Shown piece by piece: positions 9,001 to 18,000 of a stretch of 32,538 nt of DNA; the first letter of the stretch is position 1, and every line of letters starts with the position of its first letter. The stretch lies in contig CAZFAZ010000056.1 in assembly GCA_964517155.1 (NCBI GenBank), positions 1 through 32,538 on the forward strand, written 5' to 3'. The position numbers were made by a program. Origin of the DNA: an uncultured Thermoplasmatales archaeon. GTDB lineage: Archaea > Thermoplasmatota > E2 > DHVEG-1.

Positions 9001-12000
9001 ACAAGTCCTGAGAGATTTCTTTCAAAAATCATTCCTTTATGACATATATCACATACGCCAATTGAACCTGTTTCTTCTGATATATCTGTAGATAGATTTC
9101 CGATAGAATTTAAATCCTCATTTGGTGTTTTTTCAACTTCGCTTATTATCTGAAAAACATCTCCTGACGCAATATCATCAATGTTTAACTCTCCGGCAAC
9201 ATGACTAGTATTTTCCTGAATAATTTTTAATGGATCTGGTGTTTCTTGTTTTAAATCATCTGGAAAACTTTGTTTTTTTCTAAGCTCTTGTATATGTGTA
9301 AATACTTCTTTTAGCTCCTCATCCACAGCAATTTTTTTCCTCATTTATACTTCTCCACGGCTATCCTATCAATTATATGAATAAAATTAAGGATATTTAA
9401 TTCCTGCGTATTATCAGGCTTTGCCCCAAAAGTCCCTTTTGACTCTAAAGTCGATAATTTGATCTTAAAGTAAAAAAATTTGCAACGATTAAAAGAAAGT
9501 TTGGTGAAACAATAAAGTCTAAAAATCGTAATGCTCAGGAAAATGAGATTCTATGTAAAATTATTGATTATAATATTACAGTTCTTATTCATGCAATGAA
9601 GGAGTTTGGAATAAATCCAAGTTTTTGTGTTTAGATTTTAAATAATTATTTAAAGAACAAAGTTATTTTACTTTGAAAGGACAGAAATAAATGGAAAAAA
9701 TAAAAGTGTTGATAATTGGGATTACCTTATTTTTATCTATCACAATTTTTATTGGATGCACTGAAACAAATGAATCTGGTAATAATGTAGGATTAAATGA
9801 ATTACCTATTCCAATTATAACATTTCCCGAAGGAGCCCATCCTAGATGGTGGAATGATACCTTATTTGTCAATGCATTAGAGTCATATGATTTTGATGGT
9901 GATATAGTTGATTACAGATGGTTTTTTGAAACCAATATTGGATTAACACCTGATTCTTCAGAAACCAGAGCAGGTGATAGTACTAGCTATAAGATTCCTG
10001 AAGCAAATTTTATGGATGGATATGTAAATATTACTCTTGCAGTCACAGATAATAAGGGGGTTAGTTCATTTGCTTATTATGATATTCCACTGAGAAGGGG
10101 AAAAGGTGCAATTCACTTTGAACAGATTGACTCATCTACTGTCTTCAACATTACTTTTGTTCAAGGCGTTTCAAATGGAACCGGAGAAGGTTTTCTTGAT
10201 CTTTTTGAAAAAGAAATTTTTGTTGAAATTTATAAAAATGGATCATGGGATGGTCAACTTGGTTATTTCCCAGGCTATAAAGATGTAGATAACGATGGTA
10301 CAATATCCAAAGGCGATACTTTTGATATTTTCGATTCATTCTGGCCGAATTATTATGATGGATCAACTGTAAAAATTGATTTAATAGGTGGGAAAGGACA
10401 TAATCGAGAAACAATTGTAGGATCTTTAGAAGTTGAATTTGAATAATTAAATATTTTGCACCTAAAATCAATACTCTGCACCTAAAGTCATTCATTTTTC
10501 ACACTTTAAGGGCAAAGCCGTATTATCATAAACAATTATAAGCAAAAATTAGATGTTTAAGAGAGTTATCTTATCACTAAACATTGTAAGAACTGCAAAA
10601 GTTAATGCAAAAAAGATGTATTGGACATACATAATTGACCAAGCATGAACGTTTTCAAGTGTTTTGCTCTCCATGCCTTTAATCATAAGATAAAATATAA
10701 ACAGGCTGATAAACATAAAAAGACTAAGAGGCCAAAGATACCCCTTAATTAAATCAGCATGTATAAAAATAAAAATAAAAAGAAAGGGAAACAGCATAAA
10801 AGGTAAGCAAACAAGAGCTGTTTTTTTAACGCCAATTGTATTTATAAGAGTACGAGTGCCGGTTGCTCTATCTGCCTCTGAATCAGTTATATCTTTTGTC
10901 GCCATGCCACCTATTAGATAAGTCATAGCAATTCCTCCAATTATCCATGGTGTTGCATCGTTAAAAAGATTCTCAGAGCCAAAAACACTCCAGGATGCAA
11001 GAATTCCAAGTAATCCACGAGGTATAGCAATCCATATTTGATTAATAAACAGATATTTTTTCATTCTTGGAGGAAGAGAATAAGTAACTGTAAAAACAAT
11101 TATTAAAAATATAAAAAAACCAAACCAAAAATTGATAGTTACTGCGCGAAGAAGAGCAAAAAGATAAAGTATATATGCAAGGCTTTGAGCGCTATCTGCT
11201 CTTATAATCCCACGTGGTATTGGTCTGTATGGTTTTGATATTTTGTCTGCTTCTACATCTGCTGCTTGATTAAGTGAGTTTGAAGCAGCATTAACAAGTG
11301 CAATTGTAAACGCTGCTTGACCTATAGTAATCCACCAATACTGAGAAATTTCGTTTGGGTCAAGATTTCCTGTATTATAATTATAAATCAGGCTTGCAAC
11401 CATAATAGACATAGAAACAATAAATGGAGCTGCAAGAGTAAAAGGTCTGAAAAGATCTAAAGTGCCACGTGCTTGTTTTGAAAGAAACCTTGTTTTTGTA
11501 TAAGGCTCCTTCATTGTCCATTTACCGGGAACAATAACTTTAGGTCCTAATTCAGGTTTGTCCATTGTGGAATTAATATCATACCTACCTATTAAAATCT
11601 TTTTAAAAATATACTTACAATAGCTCGGAGAGAATTCTGCCAGAGTTTAAAGCACAGTTAAAACCAATCCCAGGTGCTTTAACACAATCACCTACTAAAA
11701 ACAAGTTTTCAACAGGTGTTTTTATATCAGGTTTATTTTTATCAAGTGATTTTGCAACACCGTCAAGATGCCAAATCGCTGGATAAATTGCCCATTTAAG
11801 ATTTGATTTATAATCAGGTATTAAGTATTTTAAATTCTGATCCATTAAATCTTTAAGTTTTTTAAGAATTTTAGGATTTTTTGCTTCATCAGATGTACAG
11901 ATAATATATGATTGGATTAGAAAATCTTTTTTAGAACTAAGCCTAGATTTTTGTGAAGAAGACATAAAATCAATCATCCCTACAACATCGTTTCCTTCAA

Positions 12001-15000: not shown

Positions 15001-18000
15001 CAAGTCCTGATAAGCGCAATAATCTTGCGTAGGCTAAAAATATTCGTCCCATTAGTATATGTAAAATGATATTGTTTTTTGAATTTTTCCTAAATTTATT
15101 TACATTGTTTTGGGCTGTAACAATGTTCCATGTAATATTAAATTATTTAAAATAAAGCCTATTAATGGGAAAAACATAAGGATACCTGCCCAGGGGTTTA
15201 ATGTCATAAGCATTATTGGAACTATCATAAAATTTATCATGTAATGGCTTCCTATGTACTTTCTTGCTTTTCCTCTTTCAAATTTTTTCATTGAAAGTAA
15301 TTTATGTGATATTGTAAACATTAGAATTGCAATGATTATAATTATTATCCATTGCAAGTATTGTAATATAGTTAGATTTTTTATATCCCAAAAAATAAAA
15401 AATGGTAGAAATACTATTATTAAGTCAATTATCTGAATGCCGTATGCAAGTGTCTTGAAACTATTTGATATCCTAAGTTTTCCTTCAGTGACTCTTACTC
15501 CAAGTTTTACAGCTAATGTTTTTGCACCCATTTTATAATCGTTTTCTATATCTTTGAGGCCACCTGCTATAAATTGCATAAACAAGACTTGAATTGGTCC
15601 TAAGACACATACAATCCATGTTAGTTTGTCTATCTCTTGAATACTGCCTGTGCTTGATGAAACAGTAGCACCGTATACTATTAAGAAAAATACGCCTAAT
15701 GCTACAAAAATGTCCATGCCTGGGAGTTTTTTGCTTATTAAATCATAGATTGTTATAAATAATGCAGAAAGCCCAAGCATTAATATCGGAAAATATGTCC
15801 CTGTGTCGTAAGCAATATATCCTGCGATTAAAAAAGCAATAATCATGGACAGTATTGCAAAAGCCCATGCTTTTTTAAGAGAAATTGTTCCACTAATAAG
15901 TGGTCTATCGCTTATTTCTGTAGATGATTTATCGATTTTGTAATCAATTATGTCATTTAGCACAAAACCATACGTATGTCCAAGAAAACCTGCTATAAAC
16001 AAAAGAAAGAGTGTAGCAATGTCATAATTCTGCATTGCAATTGCGCCCATTACAGGGCTTATTCCTGTTAAAACTGCATTAAAAGAACGTGCAAGTTTTA
16101 GATATTCTCTAATTTTCACATGTATTGAAAATTATAAGCTGGTTAAAAACTCATCGGAAAATTAGTGGGAAAAGTTTTGTTATAATCTATTTATGTCAGT
16201 AGGAAGTATAACATTTATTTTTTTGGAAAACCTTGTTTTTTTATTGTATTTTGCTTAAAATAATGAGTAATATTATATAAAGAAATCATTTTCTTGGTGT
16301 CAGATGTATATAGATTTAATATCGCTTATAATTTTACTGCTTGCAGGTTTTGGAAGTGGTCTTTTTGTAAGTATATGTAGTGGGACTGCTGCAGGTTATA
16401 TGATACCTGTTTTAACTGCTTTTTTAGGTAAATCCATTCATAAATCAATTGGTACTAGTCTATTTATCGATAGCGTTGTTGCTCTTACTGCAGGATTAAT
16501 TTTTTTAAGGAATGGAAAAACCAAACTTAAACCAGTTTTATTGCTTGTTTTATTCTCAGCTGTTGGGGCTTTTTTTGGTAGCTTTTTTACAGATATTGCT
16601 CCTGAAGCTGGTTTAAATATATACATTGGTATCATTTTATTATTATTTGGTATTAATCTAGTTTATAATGGTGTTCGAAAAAATGTTGATTTTGTTAAAT
16701 CAAAATATTCTTTTAAATTCTTCAAAAAATACAAAACATTTTTGTTTATAATATTTGGTTTTGTTATAGGTATCGTGAGTGGTTTTACAGGATTTGGCGG
16801 TGCAGGTTTTATTGCTCTTGGTTTAGTTTTTATTTTAGATTATGATCTGCATACAGCGATTGGTACTTCTCTTATTGTTATGTTTGTTTTGGCAGGATTT
16901 GCATCAGTTATGCATTTTCTTAGAGAAAACTTTCTTTTAGATGCTGCTTTGATTGCAGGCGTTGCAGCAATATTTGGAGCTGTTTTGGGTTCTTTTTTTG
17001 CAAACAAGGTAAATGAAGAAAGATTGGGTAAAATAATTGGCCTTATACTGATAACATTAGGTATTGCGGTATTTGTTCGTATGTTTTTATAAAAAATTGC
17101 TTAAAATTAAAATATATATTTTCATATTAAAATATGATAATTTAACATATATTAAGTATAAATAAAGTACTCTTATGGCGTTATACGTTAATTATATAAA
17201 AATTGTATAATAAGATTTATATACTCTCTTCATATATATTTTTTTATTGAATGGGGGAGATAATTGATTTAGAATATTTTTTTTCTTAATCTCTCCTCAC
17301 CACCTTCATCTTCCCCATTCTCTCCTTAGTACTATAAAAATAAAAATCGCTTCAGATTAATTAAATAGAATTTTCTCAGCATTATTTGAGACAATATTTC
17401 TATGTTTTTCATCTGTTATAATCATTACAGCCCAGTCGGTAATCAAACGCGATTTAATAGCAAGGCTGATGGGTGTAAACTCATCCAGTTTTTTACAAAG
17501 ATTATTATCAAAAACCATAATATCTGTTTTATCAATGCGTGGCTCATTAAGATGCAGCTCAGTGTTTGGAAAATCAATAATTACATGACCTGAAGGTATA
17601 CCAAGCTTTTGTTCAAATTCTATTTCTTTTTTTCGTCTAAAAGAAGTATCATCAAGTTTTTTGATAAAATCAATTTTATCAGAAGACAATTCAACAACCG
17701 CTGGAGAATATGCTTGTTTGAATAGTTTACGATATTTTAGTCTAACTGCTGTTTCATGCTGAAAAACTCCCATCTTTTTAAGATTATTCATGAGTTCATC
17801 ATCAGTCATTTTAAAAAATTCAAAAGGATGAAAATCTTTAGAAAGCTCGATTGCCTTTGAAAGCATAAGCTCTGCTATTCTAACGGTTTTATGAAAATAA
17901 ACTGAGGAATACATAAGAGTACGTGCCATAAGTATATTTTCGACAACGCCAACTCCTTTTTTAGAGATGCCAAGAACCCCGTTGACAACAGTTAAAGAAT

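Follow-up and report, generated by a model that had tools for sequence, protein, structure and literature searches.

CrtC and kievitone hydratase are cofactor-independent enzymes that hydrate a terminal prenyl double bond, and CruF represents the other known carotenoid 1,2-hydratase family, beside CrtC. The haloarchaeal bacterioruberin trio consists of LyeJ (a UbiA-type lycopene elongase), CrtD, and CruF. Among enzymes of archaeal lipid chains, the hydroxyarchaeol synthase Has (MA0127 of Methanosarcina acetivorans) belongs to the phytoene-desaturase family (Mori 2015, as cited in passages of PMC10821996). The passages drawn on here from a preprint by Garcia et al. (bioRxiv 10.1101/2025.10.20.683597) report an AttH-like hydroxy-GDGT synthase, Hgs, whose gene overlaps that of Ted, a B12 radical SAM desaturase. 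According to these passages, Hgs homologs are found in Methanobacteriota and Bathyarchaeota, and Thermoplasmatota lack Hgs at a BLASTP threshold of 1e-80. We take Has and Hgs, both treated there, as precedents for the explanation preferred below.

We analyzed a window of 32,538 nucleotides from an uncultured sediment Thermoplasmatales archaeon, in which five co-directional genes span 10549-16119 on the minus strand. A preliminary description of this DNA had reported five adjacent genes for three UbiA proteins, a phytoene-desaturase homolog, and a double lipocalin, a composition that our open reading frames, Pfam matches, and fold assignment bear out. We predict that this operon probably makes a hydroxylated membrane isoprenoid. 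Our preferred explanation, to which we assign a probability of roughly 45%, is that the operon would modify a long membrane isoprenoid chain at its end by a LyeJ-CrtD-CruF logic, with a GGPP-derived lipid, not a C40 carotenoid, as its usual substrate.

Operon layout, prenyltransferases, and flavoprotein

The intergenic gaps within the five-gene run (49, 36, 15, and 47 nt) are operon-like (Table 1). The locus was initially delimited as 10549..17092; its start and its five genes stand, but its end takes in a sixth gene on the opposite strand, beyond the point at which the operon stops.

Table 1. Features of the operon and its syntenic neighbor
Gene	Position	Strand	Description
g01139	10549-11565	minus	338 aa; UbiA prenyltransferase, DGGGPS/ChlG/HPT-like branch ('U39')
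g01140	11615-12997	minus	460 aa; FAD-dependent flavoprotein, phytoene-desaturase/CrtD/Has superfamily
g01141	13034-14011	minus	325 aa; CrtC/AttH-fold double lipocalin, cytoplasmic, putative prenyl-chain hydratase
g01142	14027-15052	minus	341 aa; UbiA-family prenyltransferase ('U42')
g01143	15100-16119	minus	339 aa, GTG start; UbiA-family prenyltransferase ('U43'), first gene of the operon
TauE gene	16304-17092	plus	TauE (Pfam, 121 bits); syntenic neighbor, outside the operon

All three operon UbiA proteins score above the Pfam UbiA cut-off of 34.2 bits (g01139, 106.3; g01142, 74.4; g01143, 86.3) and keep both Asp-rich motifs. g01139, whose gene adjoins g01140 on the lower-coordinate side, contains two DxxxD motifs and shows a polytopic profile, and g01142 and g01143 share 29% identity over their full length. 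The best PDB match of each of the three is MjDGGGPS (6m31 for g01139, E 3.3e-8; E 2.5e-9 for g01143). The label 'DGGGP-synthase-like' given to these proteins at the outset is apt as a description of their best weak match but fails by equivalog score. On PRK12884, which is the best NCBIfam match of g01139, the three proteins reach 85.4, 51.2, and 80.2 bits (g01139, g01142, and g01143, respectively) against a cut-off of 269, and on PRK12882 they reach 73.7, 22.4, and 59.3 bits against 296, values that led us to reject an assignment as DGGGP synthases. Elsewhere in the genome, a UbiA protein on contig C1 is a far better DGGGPS candidate (264.1 and 171.7 bits on the DGGGPS models), and a canonical GGGPS is located on contig C71. 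We know of no ether-lipid pathway that requires three extra UbiA enzymes. The genome contains 17 UbiA matches, in varied contexts. The lycopene-elongase-type model NF009516 (LyeJ/CrtEb) returned no row at E<=0.01 for any of the three operon proteins and matches two UbiA proteins on contig C10; across 14 control genomes it matched in D. radiodurans, C. glutamicum, and H. volcanii only.

The flavoprotein g01140 matches Pfam Amino_oxidase at 56.4 bits (cut-off 19.8). Its best NCBIfam row is CrtD (TIGR02733), at 72.5 bits (cut-off 549.7), and an equivalog assignment as a CrtD carotenoid 3,4-desaturase was rejected on this score; NF045637 gives 51 bits against 580. Among solved structures, the g01140 family profile scores 76.9 bits on 3ka7, 73.1 on 3nrn (PF1083), and 61.8 on 4rep. 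Foldseek likewise places 3ka7, an oxidoreductase of Methanosarcina mazei (PMC3382138), at the top (E 4e-24), with an identity of only 20%.

The double lipocalin g01141

An independent AF2 model of g01141, built from a 30-sequence alignment (pLDDT 88.8, pTM 0.88), is all-beta and has the two beta-barrels of a double lipocalin. Its best Foldseek match in the PDB is AttH (2ich; E 1.6e-11, TM 0.65), and further matches include CghA (6kbc), pericyclases, kievitone hydratase (7a0t; 2.5e-10), and the 25-phosphosteroid lyase 9fzn (8.4e-9). These are the best matches obtained before, and the AttH/CrtC/kievitone-hydratase fold proposed in the preliminary description is thus confirmed. The earlier model, from a different alignment, had a pLDDT of 93.4 and a pTM of 0.91. 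The fold also includes lyases and pericyclases. No Pfam family exceeds its cut-off and NCBIfam gives no row; the sub-threshold Pfam rows are PF07143 (the CrtC N-terminal lipocalin; 22.1 vs 22.5 bits), DA_N (23.1 vs 27), and AsqO_C (18.2 vs 27). Several close relatives of g01141 carry a precomputed match to PF07143 or PF24137.

Five residues (W33, W34, D178, W195, and W197) are identical in all 30 aligned sequences and fall within two invariant motifs, E-W33-W34 and Y176-x-D178...W195-x-W197. HMMER aligns D178 and the W-x-W to YD...WTW of kievitone hydratase 7a0q, in a match that is itself marginal (E 0.17). In RgCrtC, the cited passages of PMC12402844 describe D268 as the catalytic Asp and W110, W283, and W285 as cation-stabilizing Trp residues; the g01141 motif spacing agrees with D268, W283, and W285, with the RgCrtC numbering mapped from that spacing. 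Because the fold and the conserved Asp/W-x-W motif are joined by a mutually exclusive replacement of this gene by a CruF-family gene in relatives (described below), g01141 most likely acts as a hydratase, producing a tertiary alcohol on a prenyl chain, and the same evidence supports the hydratase reading already advanced for it. Fold, motif, and gene displacement would be consistent with a mechanism in which the conserved Asp protonates a trisubstituted C=C, the Trp residues stabilize the cation, and the addition of water then gives the tertiary alcohol.

Searched with a g01141 profile, the 50% library yielded 970 relatives at E<=1e-3 (an earlier count of 609 came from another query). The family is present in 98 of 118 genomes of the order, with at most 7 matches per genome, and its named members are all labeled Thermoplasmatota/Thermoplasmatales; the outgroup clades retrieved are bacterial and Asgard. 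The genome under study has one full-length copy; a 485-aa ORF on contig C49 also matches the family HMM, but weakly (37 bits). No signal peptide was found in g01141, and many AttH-like paralogs in the order have signal-peptide-like N-termini. Among outgroups, the nearest cases in which an AttH-like gene pairs with a g01140-like gene lie in bacterial catabolic clusters with thiolase, DUF35, and acyl-CoA dehydrogenase genes. Taken with the numerous UbiA genes of the genome, these paralogs and outgroup pairs would fit a role in making another prenylated compound (a polyprenol/dolichol or a prenylated quinone-like carrier) or in breaking down environmental isoprenoids. Such a role appears very unlikely, as the archaeal cluster lacks aromatic-head-group, CoA-ligase, and beta-oxidation genes, g01141 itself has no signal peptide, and UbiA enzymes are, to our knowledge, biosynthetic.

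Conservation, cluster composition, and substrate

The flavoprotein gene g01140 is single-copy in 97 of the 118 order genomes and occurs in every genome of two sister families (16/16 and 12/12), with no match at E<=1e-30 in the remaining families of the phylum sample. We inspected 94 g01140 loci and found a UbiA gene directly beside g01140 in 83 and at least three UbiA genes within 6 genes of it in 63, counts that overstate support because related genomes share ancestry and are not independent. The cluster is a lineage trait, and its conservation agrees with the earlier proposal of a conserved isoprenoid module. Orthologs of g01139 (54-88% identity) adjoin g01140 in most order loci, orthologs of g01143 (55-87% identity) occupy the same cluster end in relatives, and in 12 of 14 loci from the two sister families the gene directly downstream of that for the flavoprotein is of the U42 type. 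The U42-type UbiA and g01140 are the deepest-conserved pair.

Two types of hydratase gene occupy these clusters. AttH-like genes are found in 40 of the 94 loci, CruF-like genes (PF04240, 65.1 bits) in 21, and both together in none; three genera contain both types, in different species. The 33 loci without any hydratase gene include many on short contigs and about ten with long flanks. Relatives also add GGR-family genes, found no more than 3 genes away from g01140 in 28 of 94 loci (a scanned example scores 215 bits on GG-red-SF, cut-off 158.8), and CruG/HpnB-like glycosyltransferases, with a GT2 that resembles CruG at 195.7 bits.

UbiA, a CrtD-like protein, a CrtC/CruF-like hydratase, and a CruG/HpnB-like glycosyltransferase constitute a carotenoid-type toolkit, and in the genome under study crtB (phytoene synthase) sits beside a crtI-like gene on contig C34. 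These observations, together with the interchange of CrtC-like and CruF-like hydratases within a LyeJ-CrtD-CruF architecture and the rank of CrtD as the top NCBIfam row of g01140, could point to a true carotenoid pathway, in which lycopene from the C34 CrtB/CrtI would be elongated by UbiA, 3,4-desaturated by g01140, and 1,2-hydrated by g01141 to a bacterioruberin-like hydroxylated C45/C50 pigment. We consider this pathway rather unlikely. Of the 118 order genomes, only 46 encode phytoene/squalene synthase (PF00494), and a match to it is missing from 54 of the 97 genomes that carry g01140, including genomes that are 92-95% complete (G016, G024, and G051), though MAG incompleteness weakens such absence calls. 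PF00494 also shows no association with cluster type across the 94 loci (present/absent: AttH, 20/20; CruF, 5/16; neither, 15/18). The elongase model that the operon UbiA proteins fail to match and two C10 proteins match, the low CrtD score of g01140, and the GGR paralogs of the clusters likewise argue against a carotenoid product. A bacterioruberin-type dependence on a C40 backbone was rejected on the PF00494 counts, although the genome under study has PF00494.

Since the occurrence of the cluster does not depend on phytoene synthase, and since GGR-type reductases and CruG/HpnB-like glycosyltransferases accompany it in relatives, its substrate is likely to be something other than a C40 carotenoid, plausibly ether-lipid or polyprenyl chains to judge from gene content; the lack of tracking with phytoene synthase thus argues for a GGPP-derived membrane lipid as the usual substrate. 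In our preferred explanation of chain-end tailoring, the UbiA enzymes would transfer prenyl groups to ether-lipid chains or a polyprenyl compound, the CrtD/Has-like flavoprotein would desaturate or hydrate the chain, and in relatives the alcohol could be glycosylated and the chain reduced. Points against this explanation are the carotenoid-type toolkit, the crtI and crtB genes on C34, the three UbiA enzymes in excess of what ether-lipid pathways are known to need, the presence of g01141 in only 40 of 94 loci beside 33 loci with no hydratase gene, the lyases and pericyclases that share its fold, and the catabolic setting of the outgroup gene pairs.

We also entertain, as an improbable proposal, that sediment archaea of the order and its two sister families direct bacterioruberin-type chemistry at their own membrane lipids, not at carotenoids. 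In this scheme, terminal double bonds of geranylgeranyl chains would receive prenyl units from UbiA enzymes, and the flavoprotein and a hydratase of either unrelated fold would create tertiary alcohols, glycosylated in some species. If this were true, the cluster would make prenyl-extended, hydroxylated (glyco)lipids of a class not yet described. It would also point to a benthic origin of hydroxylated isoprenoid lipids in sediments and supply a gene marker for them.

Comparison with known systems

The preliminary description read the cluster as a module for hydroxylated archaeol/GDGT-type lipids. In a specific version of this reading, g01140 would be a Has-type hydratase of the delta-2 double bond, g01141 an Hgs-type enzyme, and the UbiA proteins alternative DGGGP synthases. 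This assignment is consistent with the reports, in the passages cited above, of Has (phytoene-desaturase family) and Hgs (AttH-like) as makers of OH-lipids, with the Methanosarcina mazei origin of the closest solved relative of g01140, with MjDGGGPS as the top PDB match of three UbiA proteins, and with the independence of the cluster from phytoene synthase. It nevertheless seems unlikely to us. Thermoplasmatota lack Hgs at the threshold of the preprint passages, and the cluster contains no Ted-like radical SAM gene. The identity of g01140 to 3ka7, a protein of uncertain relation to Has, is only 20%, the UbiA scores fall far under the DGGGPS cut-offs while GGGPS and a DGGGPS-like gene are encoded elsewhere, and the CruF-like and CruG-like partners would be left unexplained.

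Hgs and g01141 are alike in that each is an AttH-like protein proposed to hydrate an archaeal isoprenoid double bond to a tertiary alcohol, a likeness by description in the preprint passages. Their partners differ: Ted for Hgs, UbiA proteins and a flavoprotein for g01141, which does not share the Ted adjacency of Hgs. The earlier claim that this fold would be new among hydratases of archaeal lipid synthesis is pre-empted by the report of Hgs (bioRxiv 10.1101/2025.10.20.683597, passages as above). Has resembles g01140 as a phytoene-desaturase-family flavoprotein and, in the passages cited, acts on archaeal lipid chains; g01140 differs in being always paired with UbiA genes, and the 20% identity quoted above for 3ka7 is that of its nearest solved relative. 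With CrtC and kievitone hydratase, g01141 shares the double-lipocalin fold and the Y-x-D...W-x-W and EWW motifs, but sequence similarity is marginal, by the PF07143 and 7a0q scores given above, and g01141 sits in a family labeled Thermoplasmatota/Thermoplasmatales.

The LyeJ-CrtD-CruF trio offers a parallel in gene organization, in that UbiA lies next to a CrtD-like flavoprotein and a terminal hydratase, which in 21 of 94 relatives' loci is of the CruF family itself. The present clusters differ from the trio, which has a single UbiA gene, in having three to five such genes, in UbiA proteins without a match to the elongase model, in a flavoprotein far under the CrtD cut-offs, in the GGR and GT2 genes added in relatives, and in the absence of phytoene synthase from more than half of the g01140-bearing genomes. 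CruF and g01141 have unrelated folds, that of g01141 being the CrtC/AttH fold.

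Organisation of the operon and its UbiA paralogs

Five consecutive minus-strand ORFs with intergenic gaps of 49, 36, 15 and 47 nt encode three UbiA-family proteins (g01139, g01142 and g01143), a CrtD/CrtI-family flavoprotein (g01140) and an AttH-like protein (g01141). They form a real, conserved, uncharacterised isoprenoid-tailoring operon, for which a literature search found no published description. The coordinates of the preliminary description had also taken in a sixth ORF, the TauE gene. The five operon genes hold up as a unit. We assign the plus-strand TauE gene to synteny rather than to the pathway; relatives retain it in this position along with urocanase and the genes for an HD protein and a GAPDH-like protein.

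Features of the operon, its surroundings and related loci
Feature	Location	Strand	Description
Five-gene operon	10549-16119	minus	g01139 to g01143
g01139		minus	Pfam UbiA, 106.3 bits (cut-off 34.2)
g01140		minus	Pfam Amino_oxidase/NAD_binding_8 flavoprotein, 56.4 bits
g01141		minus	Pfam rows below cut-off only: CrtC N-terminal lipocalin (22.1 vs 22.5), DA_N, AsqO_C
g01142		minus	Pfam UbiA, 74.4 bits (cut-off 34.2)
g01143		minus	Pfam UbiA, 86.3 bits (cut-off 34.2)
TauE-family membrane protein	16304-17092	plus	Sixth ORF
GAPDH-II-like protein	18664-19734	minus	Divergent, 110 bits (cut-off 185)
Two adjacent ORFs	26573-27841; 27875-29077	minus	422 and 400 aa; no Pfam match at E<=0.001
Fetched loci L145, L197, L205, L209	~4200-8600	opposite to operon	Extra U39-like (g01139-type) UbiA just upstream, 42-50% identical, as in many relatives
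Bacterial loci L073, L077, L078, L080, L088	~6900-9600		Leptospirales, Spirochaetota, Desulfomonile and Smithella MAGs; AttH-like gene with g01140-like flavoprotein
Asgard loci L111, L116	~1900-8000		AttH-like genes following a conserved FAD_binding_4 protein and a CCG/4Fe-4S protein

The window encodes S6e, eIF2-gamma, FtsZ and RFC and is thus archaeal. It corresponds to contig C56 of a 1.59 Mb genome with 31.8% GC and 90.8% completeness. Named relatives of g01140 and g01141 come nearly all from MAGs labelled Thermoplasmatales, Thermoplasmata or Thermoplasmatota archaeon, including SG8-52-4, and a single g01140 relative carries an Atribacterota label. In relatives, the GAPDH-II-like protein adjoins the HD protein (80-90% identity).

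Each of the three UbiA proteins has two Asp-rich motifs and a polytopic profile, and none reaches an NCBIfam equivalog cut-off. Their top NCBIfam match is PRK12884, at 85, 51 and 80 bits for g01139, g01142 and g01143 (cut-off 269), and they score 74, 22 and 59 bits on the DGGGPS model PRK12882 (cut-off 296). The genome encodes a canonical PcrB-type GGGPS on contig C71 (196 bits) and, on contig C1, a UbiA that is a much stronger DGGGPS candidate (PRK12884, 264 bits; PRK12882, 172 bits), which argues that the window UbiA proteins are extra paralogs. The top PDB match of all three is the M. jannaschii DGGGPS 6m31 (36, 23 and 40 bits, respectively). Full-length g01142 and g01143 share 29% identity; g01139 has no significant similarity to either and is closest to the C1 UbiA (27.5% over 167 aa).

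A lycopene-elongase-type model, NF009516 (PRK12875), gave no row for any of the three at E<=0.01. We take this model to represent the lycopene-elongase-type family because its matches among 14 control genomes were confined to D. radiodurans, C. glutamicum and H. volcanii. It does pick up two UbiA proteins of contig C10, which score 66 and 54 bits (cut-off 205). This lycopene-elongase-like pair lies beside radical SAM, PqqD, C39 peptidase, LCM and PEMT methyltransferase and sulfotransferase genes, a setting that resembles a peptide natural product cluster.

Overall, the genome has 17 UbiA-family matches, with loci (L002-L010) on contigs C40, C10, C59, C57/C58, C1, C79, C23 and C85. Four UbiA genes stand in tandem on C40, two on C59 lie beside a GGR-family gene, LPG_synthase_TM and a LanC-like protein, and C57 and C58 are near-duplicates.

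The operon across related genomes

We fetched the g01140 locus for 94 of the 97 order genomes that carry the gene and annotated it with our own ORF caller and HMMs built in this analysis. The usual gene order, all in one direction, is a g01139-type UbiA, the flavoprotein, in some cases a GGR-family reductase, a g01142-type UbiA and a g01143-type UbiA. At several loci the cluster lies between eIF2-gamma/PIN and TauE/HD/GAPDH-like/urocanase. A UbiA gene directly adjoins g01140 at 83 of 94 loci, and at least three UbiA genes lie within six genes at 63 of 94 (38 of 42 among loci with long flanks). A GGR-family gene occurs within three genes at 28 of 94 loci (one that was scanned scored 215 bits on GG-red-SF, cut-off 158.8) and a GT2 within eight genes at 10 of 94 (top rows of one that was scanned, both under cut-off, were HpnB, 213 bits, and the carotenoid glycosyltransferase CruG, 196 bits). 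The region upstream that holds the extra UbiA also encodes, in many relatives, a protein of ~1050-1080 aa with a weak CarboxypepD_reg match. The smallest unit in two sister families, seen at 12 of 14 loci, pairs the flavoprotein gene with a g01142-type UbiA gene downstream of it.

An AttH-like gene is found within seven genes at 40 of 94 loci and, among loci that were not picked via the AttH gene, within six genes at 27 of 81. A 225-aa membrane protein of PF04240, which we take to be the CruF family, lies at the operon end in 21 of 94 loci, usually with a 111-aa ORF; its Pfam score is 65.1 bits (cut-off 25). Pfam titles this family "Carotenoid biosynthesis protein"; it has no match in the window's own genome. 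AttH-like and CruF-like genes occur together at none of the 94 loci, of which 40 are of AttH type, 21 of CruF type and 33 of neither type, many of the last on short contigs and ~10 with long flanks. The CruF type spans 11 genera, three of which (g9, g35 and g40) also hold species with the AttH type. The exchange has thus occurred more than once, though related genomes are not independent. Carotenoid 1,2-hydratases are known from two unrelated families, CrtC and CruF. The mutual exclusion of CrtC-like and CruF-like genes from one operon slot provides the strongest indirect evidence in this analysis for reading g01141 as a hydratase.

The flavoprotein and the putative hydratase

The flavoprotein g01140 is highly conserved. 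It is present as one copy per genome in 97 of 118 order genomes (38 of 43 high-quality genomes). It also occurs in every genome sampled from two sister families within its class (16/16 and 12/12, at 41-53% identity), and at E<=1e-30 it is absent from all other families of a 401-genome phylum sample. Its best 120 database matches are 63-98% identical. The top NCBIfam rows, CrtD (72.5 bits, cut-off 549.7), PRK07233 and crtI_fam, all fall far under cut-off. We compared structures by a family profile search and by Foldseek on the predicted model (pLDDT 82.6). The oxidoreductase 3ka7, from Methanosarcina mazei according to the available text of PMC3382138, leads both (76.9 bits; E 4e-24). It is accompanied by Pyrococcus PF1083 (3nrn; 73.1 bits; Foldseek rank 6, E 7.7e-21) and a gamma-carotenoid desaturase (4rep; 61.8 bits; rank 2, E 5.0e-23), while CrtI (4dgk) gave no profile match at 1e-5 and ranked 50th in Foldseek. 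JGI names and weak cyoE rows had suggested that g01140-g01142 might comprise a protoporphyrinogen oxidase and a heme O synthase; we rejected this reading, as protoporphyrinogen oxidase 1sez matches at E 7e-4 compared to 1.6e-14 for 3nrn and 1.9e-9 for 4rep.

That g01141 is a putative hydratase is reasonably supported. The protein has neither a detected signal peptide nor a membrane segment, and its AF2 model is an all-beta double barrel. We reproduced the Foldseek matches of the preliminary description: AttH 2ich, CghA, kievitone hydratase, pericyclases and 25-phosphosteroid lyase. Domains on its ESM Atlas neighbours are CrtC, DA_N and AsqO_C. The motifs DDAFHGS, EWWYFD, GYHDHNWN, WYWG and Y-x-RY show little or no variation among 30 relatives, and in HMMER alignments Y-H-D178 and W195-Y-W197 of g01141 align with YD and WTW of kievitone hydratase 7a0q. 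In Rubrivivax CrtC, the available text of PMC12402844 gives D268 as the proton donor and W110, W283 and W285 as stabilising the cation, so that the Asp precedes the WxW tryptophans by 15 and 17 residues, compared to 17 and 19 in g01141. From this spacing, we infer that D178 and the WxW motif probably correspond to these catalytic residues.

Matches to the g01141 family occur in 98 of the 118 order genomes, at most seven in any one of them, and copies in same-genus genomes are only 41% identical to g01141, which indicates that the true ortholog is patchy. Many paralogs of the order (representatives P0245-P0323) have signal-peptide-like N-termini, so a secreted AttH-like branch exists beside the cytoplasmic cluster form.

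Outside Thermoplasmatota, the nearest nameable g01141 relatives come from Dehalococcoidia, Syntrophales, Desulfobacterota, Spirochaetota, Actinomycetota and Asgard archaea. In a search directed at the AttH-like hydroxy-GDGT synthase Hgs, we aligned the nearest outgroup clade from the g01141 profile search and scanned it against genome contigs; none of the matches was from Bathyarchaeota or ANME. P0337, another outgroup protein, is Asgard. The Asgard AttH-like family is large: 831 proteins of the database match it at E<=1e-10. A flavoprotein gene comes right after the AttH-like gene at 5 of 77 outgroup loci. The g01140-family HMM gives these flavoproteins 105-221 bits, 105 being the score of a copy truncated at a contig end, and gives the genome's own CrtI-like protein only 66. 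Three of these five bacterial loci (L073, L080 and L088) were scanned with Pfam, and in them the pair lies amid thiolase, DUF35/ChsH2-like and acyl-CoA dehydrogenase genes. This setting looks catabolic, as in anaerobic breakdown of branched or isoprenoid chains. The putative hydratase and the flavoprotein thus make up an older two-gene unit.

Substrate and relation to known systems

A carotenoid substrate is favoured by the layout of the operon, which is the same as that of haloarchaeal bacterioruberin genes. On contig C34 of the genome, a CrtI-like gene adjoins a phytoene-synthase-family gene. Just 46 of the 118 order genomes, among them 22 of the 43 of high quality, have a PF00494 match, and such a match is missing from 54 of the 97 g01140-bearing genomes, including G016 (92% complete, 7 contigs), G024 (94%) and G051 (95%). 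By locus type, genomes with and without PF00494 number 20 and 20 for AttH, 5 and 16 for CruF and 15 and 18 for neither. This pattern argues that the cluster is independent of a C40 or C30 backbone. The control genome of M. acetivorans has a PF04240 match and no PF00494 match, which shows that archaea that are not carotenogenic can encode CruF-like proteins. Taken with the GGR paralogs, these observations suggest that the more general substrate may be GGPP-derived membrane lipids (ether-lipid chains or polyprenyl compounds).

To our knowledge the order, called MBG-D in the preliminary description, is uncultured and has no lipid data. The operon is among its most conserved lineage-specific gene sets and offers the best genomic handle on a putative membrane isoprenoid. 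A hydroxylated ether lipid as product would bear on the sources of OH-GDGT-type biomarkers in palaeoclimate proxies, and a carotenoid-like rivet lipid would bring chemistry of the bacterioruberin type into dark, anoxic sediments. The CrtC-like/CruF-like exchange supplies two independent candidate enzymes for a single step, which makes that step directly testable by heterologous expression.

The hydratase fold had been proposed as new to archaeal lipid synthesis, a novelty already in print: the available text of Garcia et al. (bioRxiv 10.1101/2025.10.20.683597) reports that AttH-like Hgs makes OH-GDGTs in T. kodakarensis, that its gene overlaps that of the B12 radical SAM desaturase Ted, that the PDS-family hydroxyarchaeol synthase is named Has and that Thermoplasmatota are without Hgs. 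The ~8 B12-binding radical SAM-like frames of the genome are 430-445 aa long, compared to the criterion of at least 500 aa for Ted in that text. By analogy, the operon would combine known kinds of system: it resembles haloarchaeal LyeJ-CrtD-CruF in its operon logic and, with reasonable support, CrtC and Hgs in the type of hydration that g01141 would carry out.
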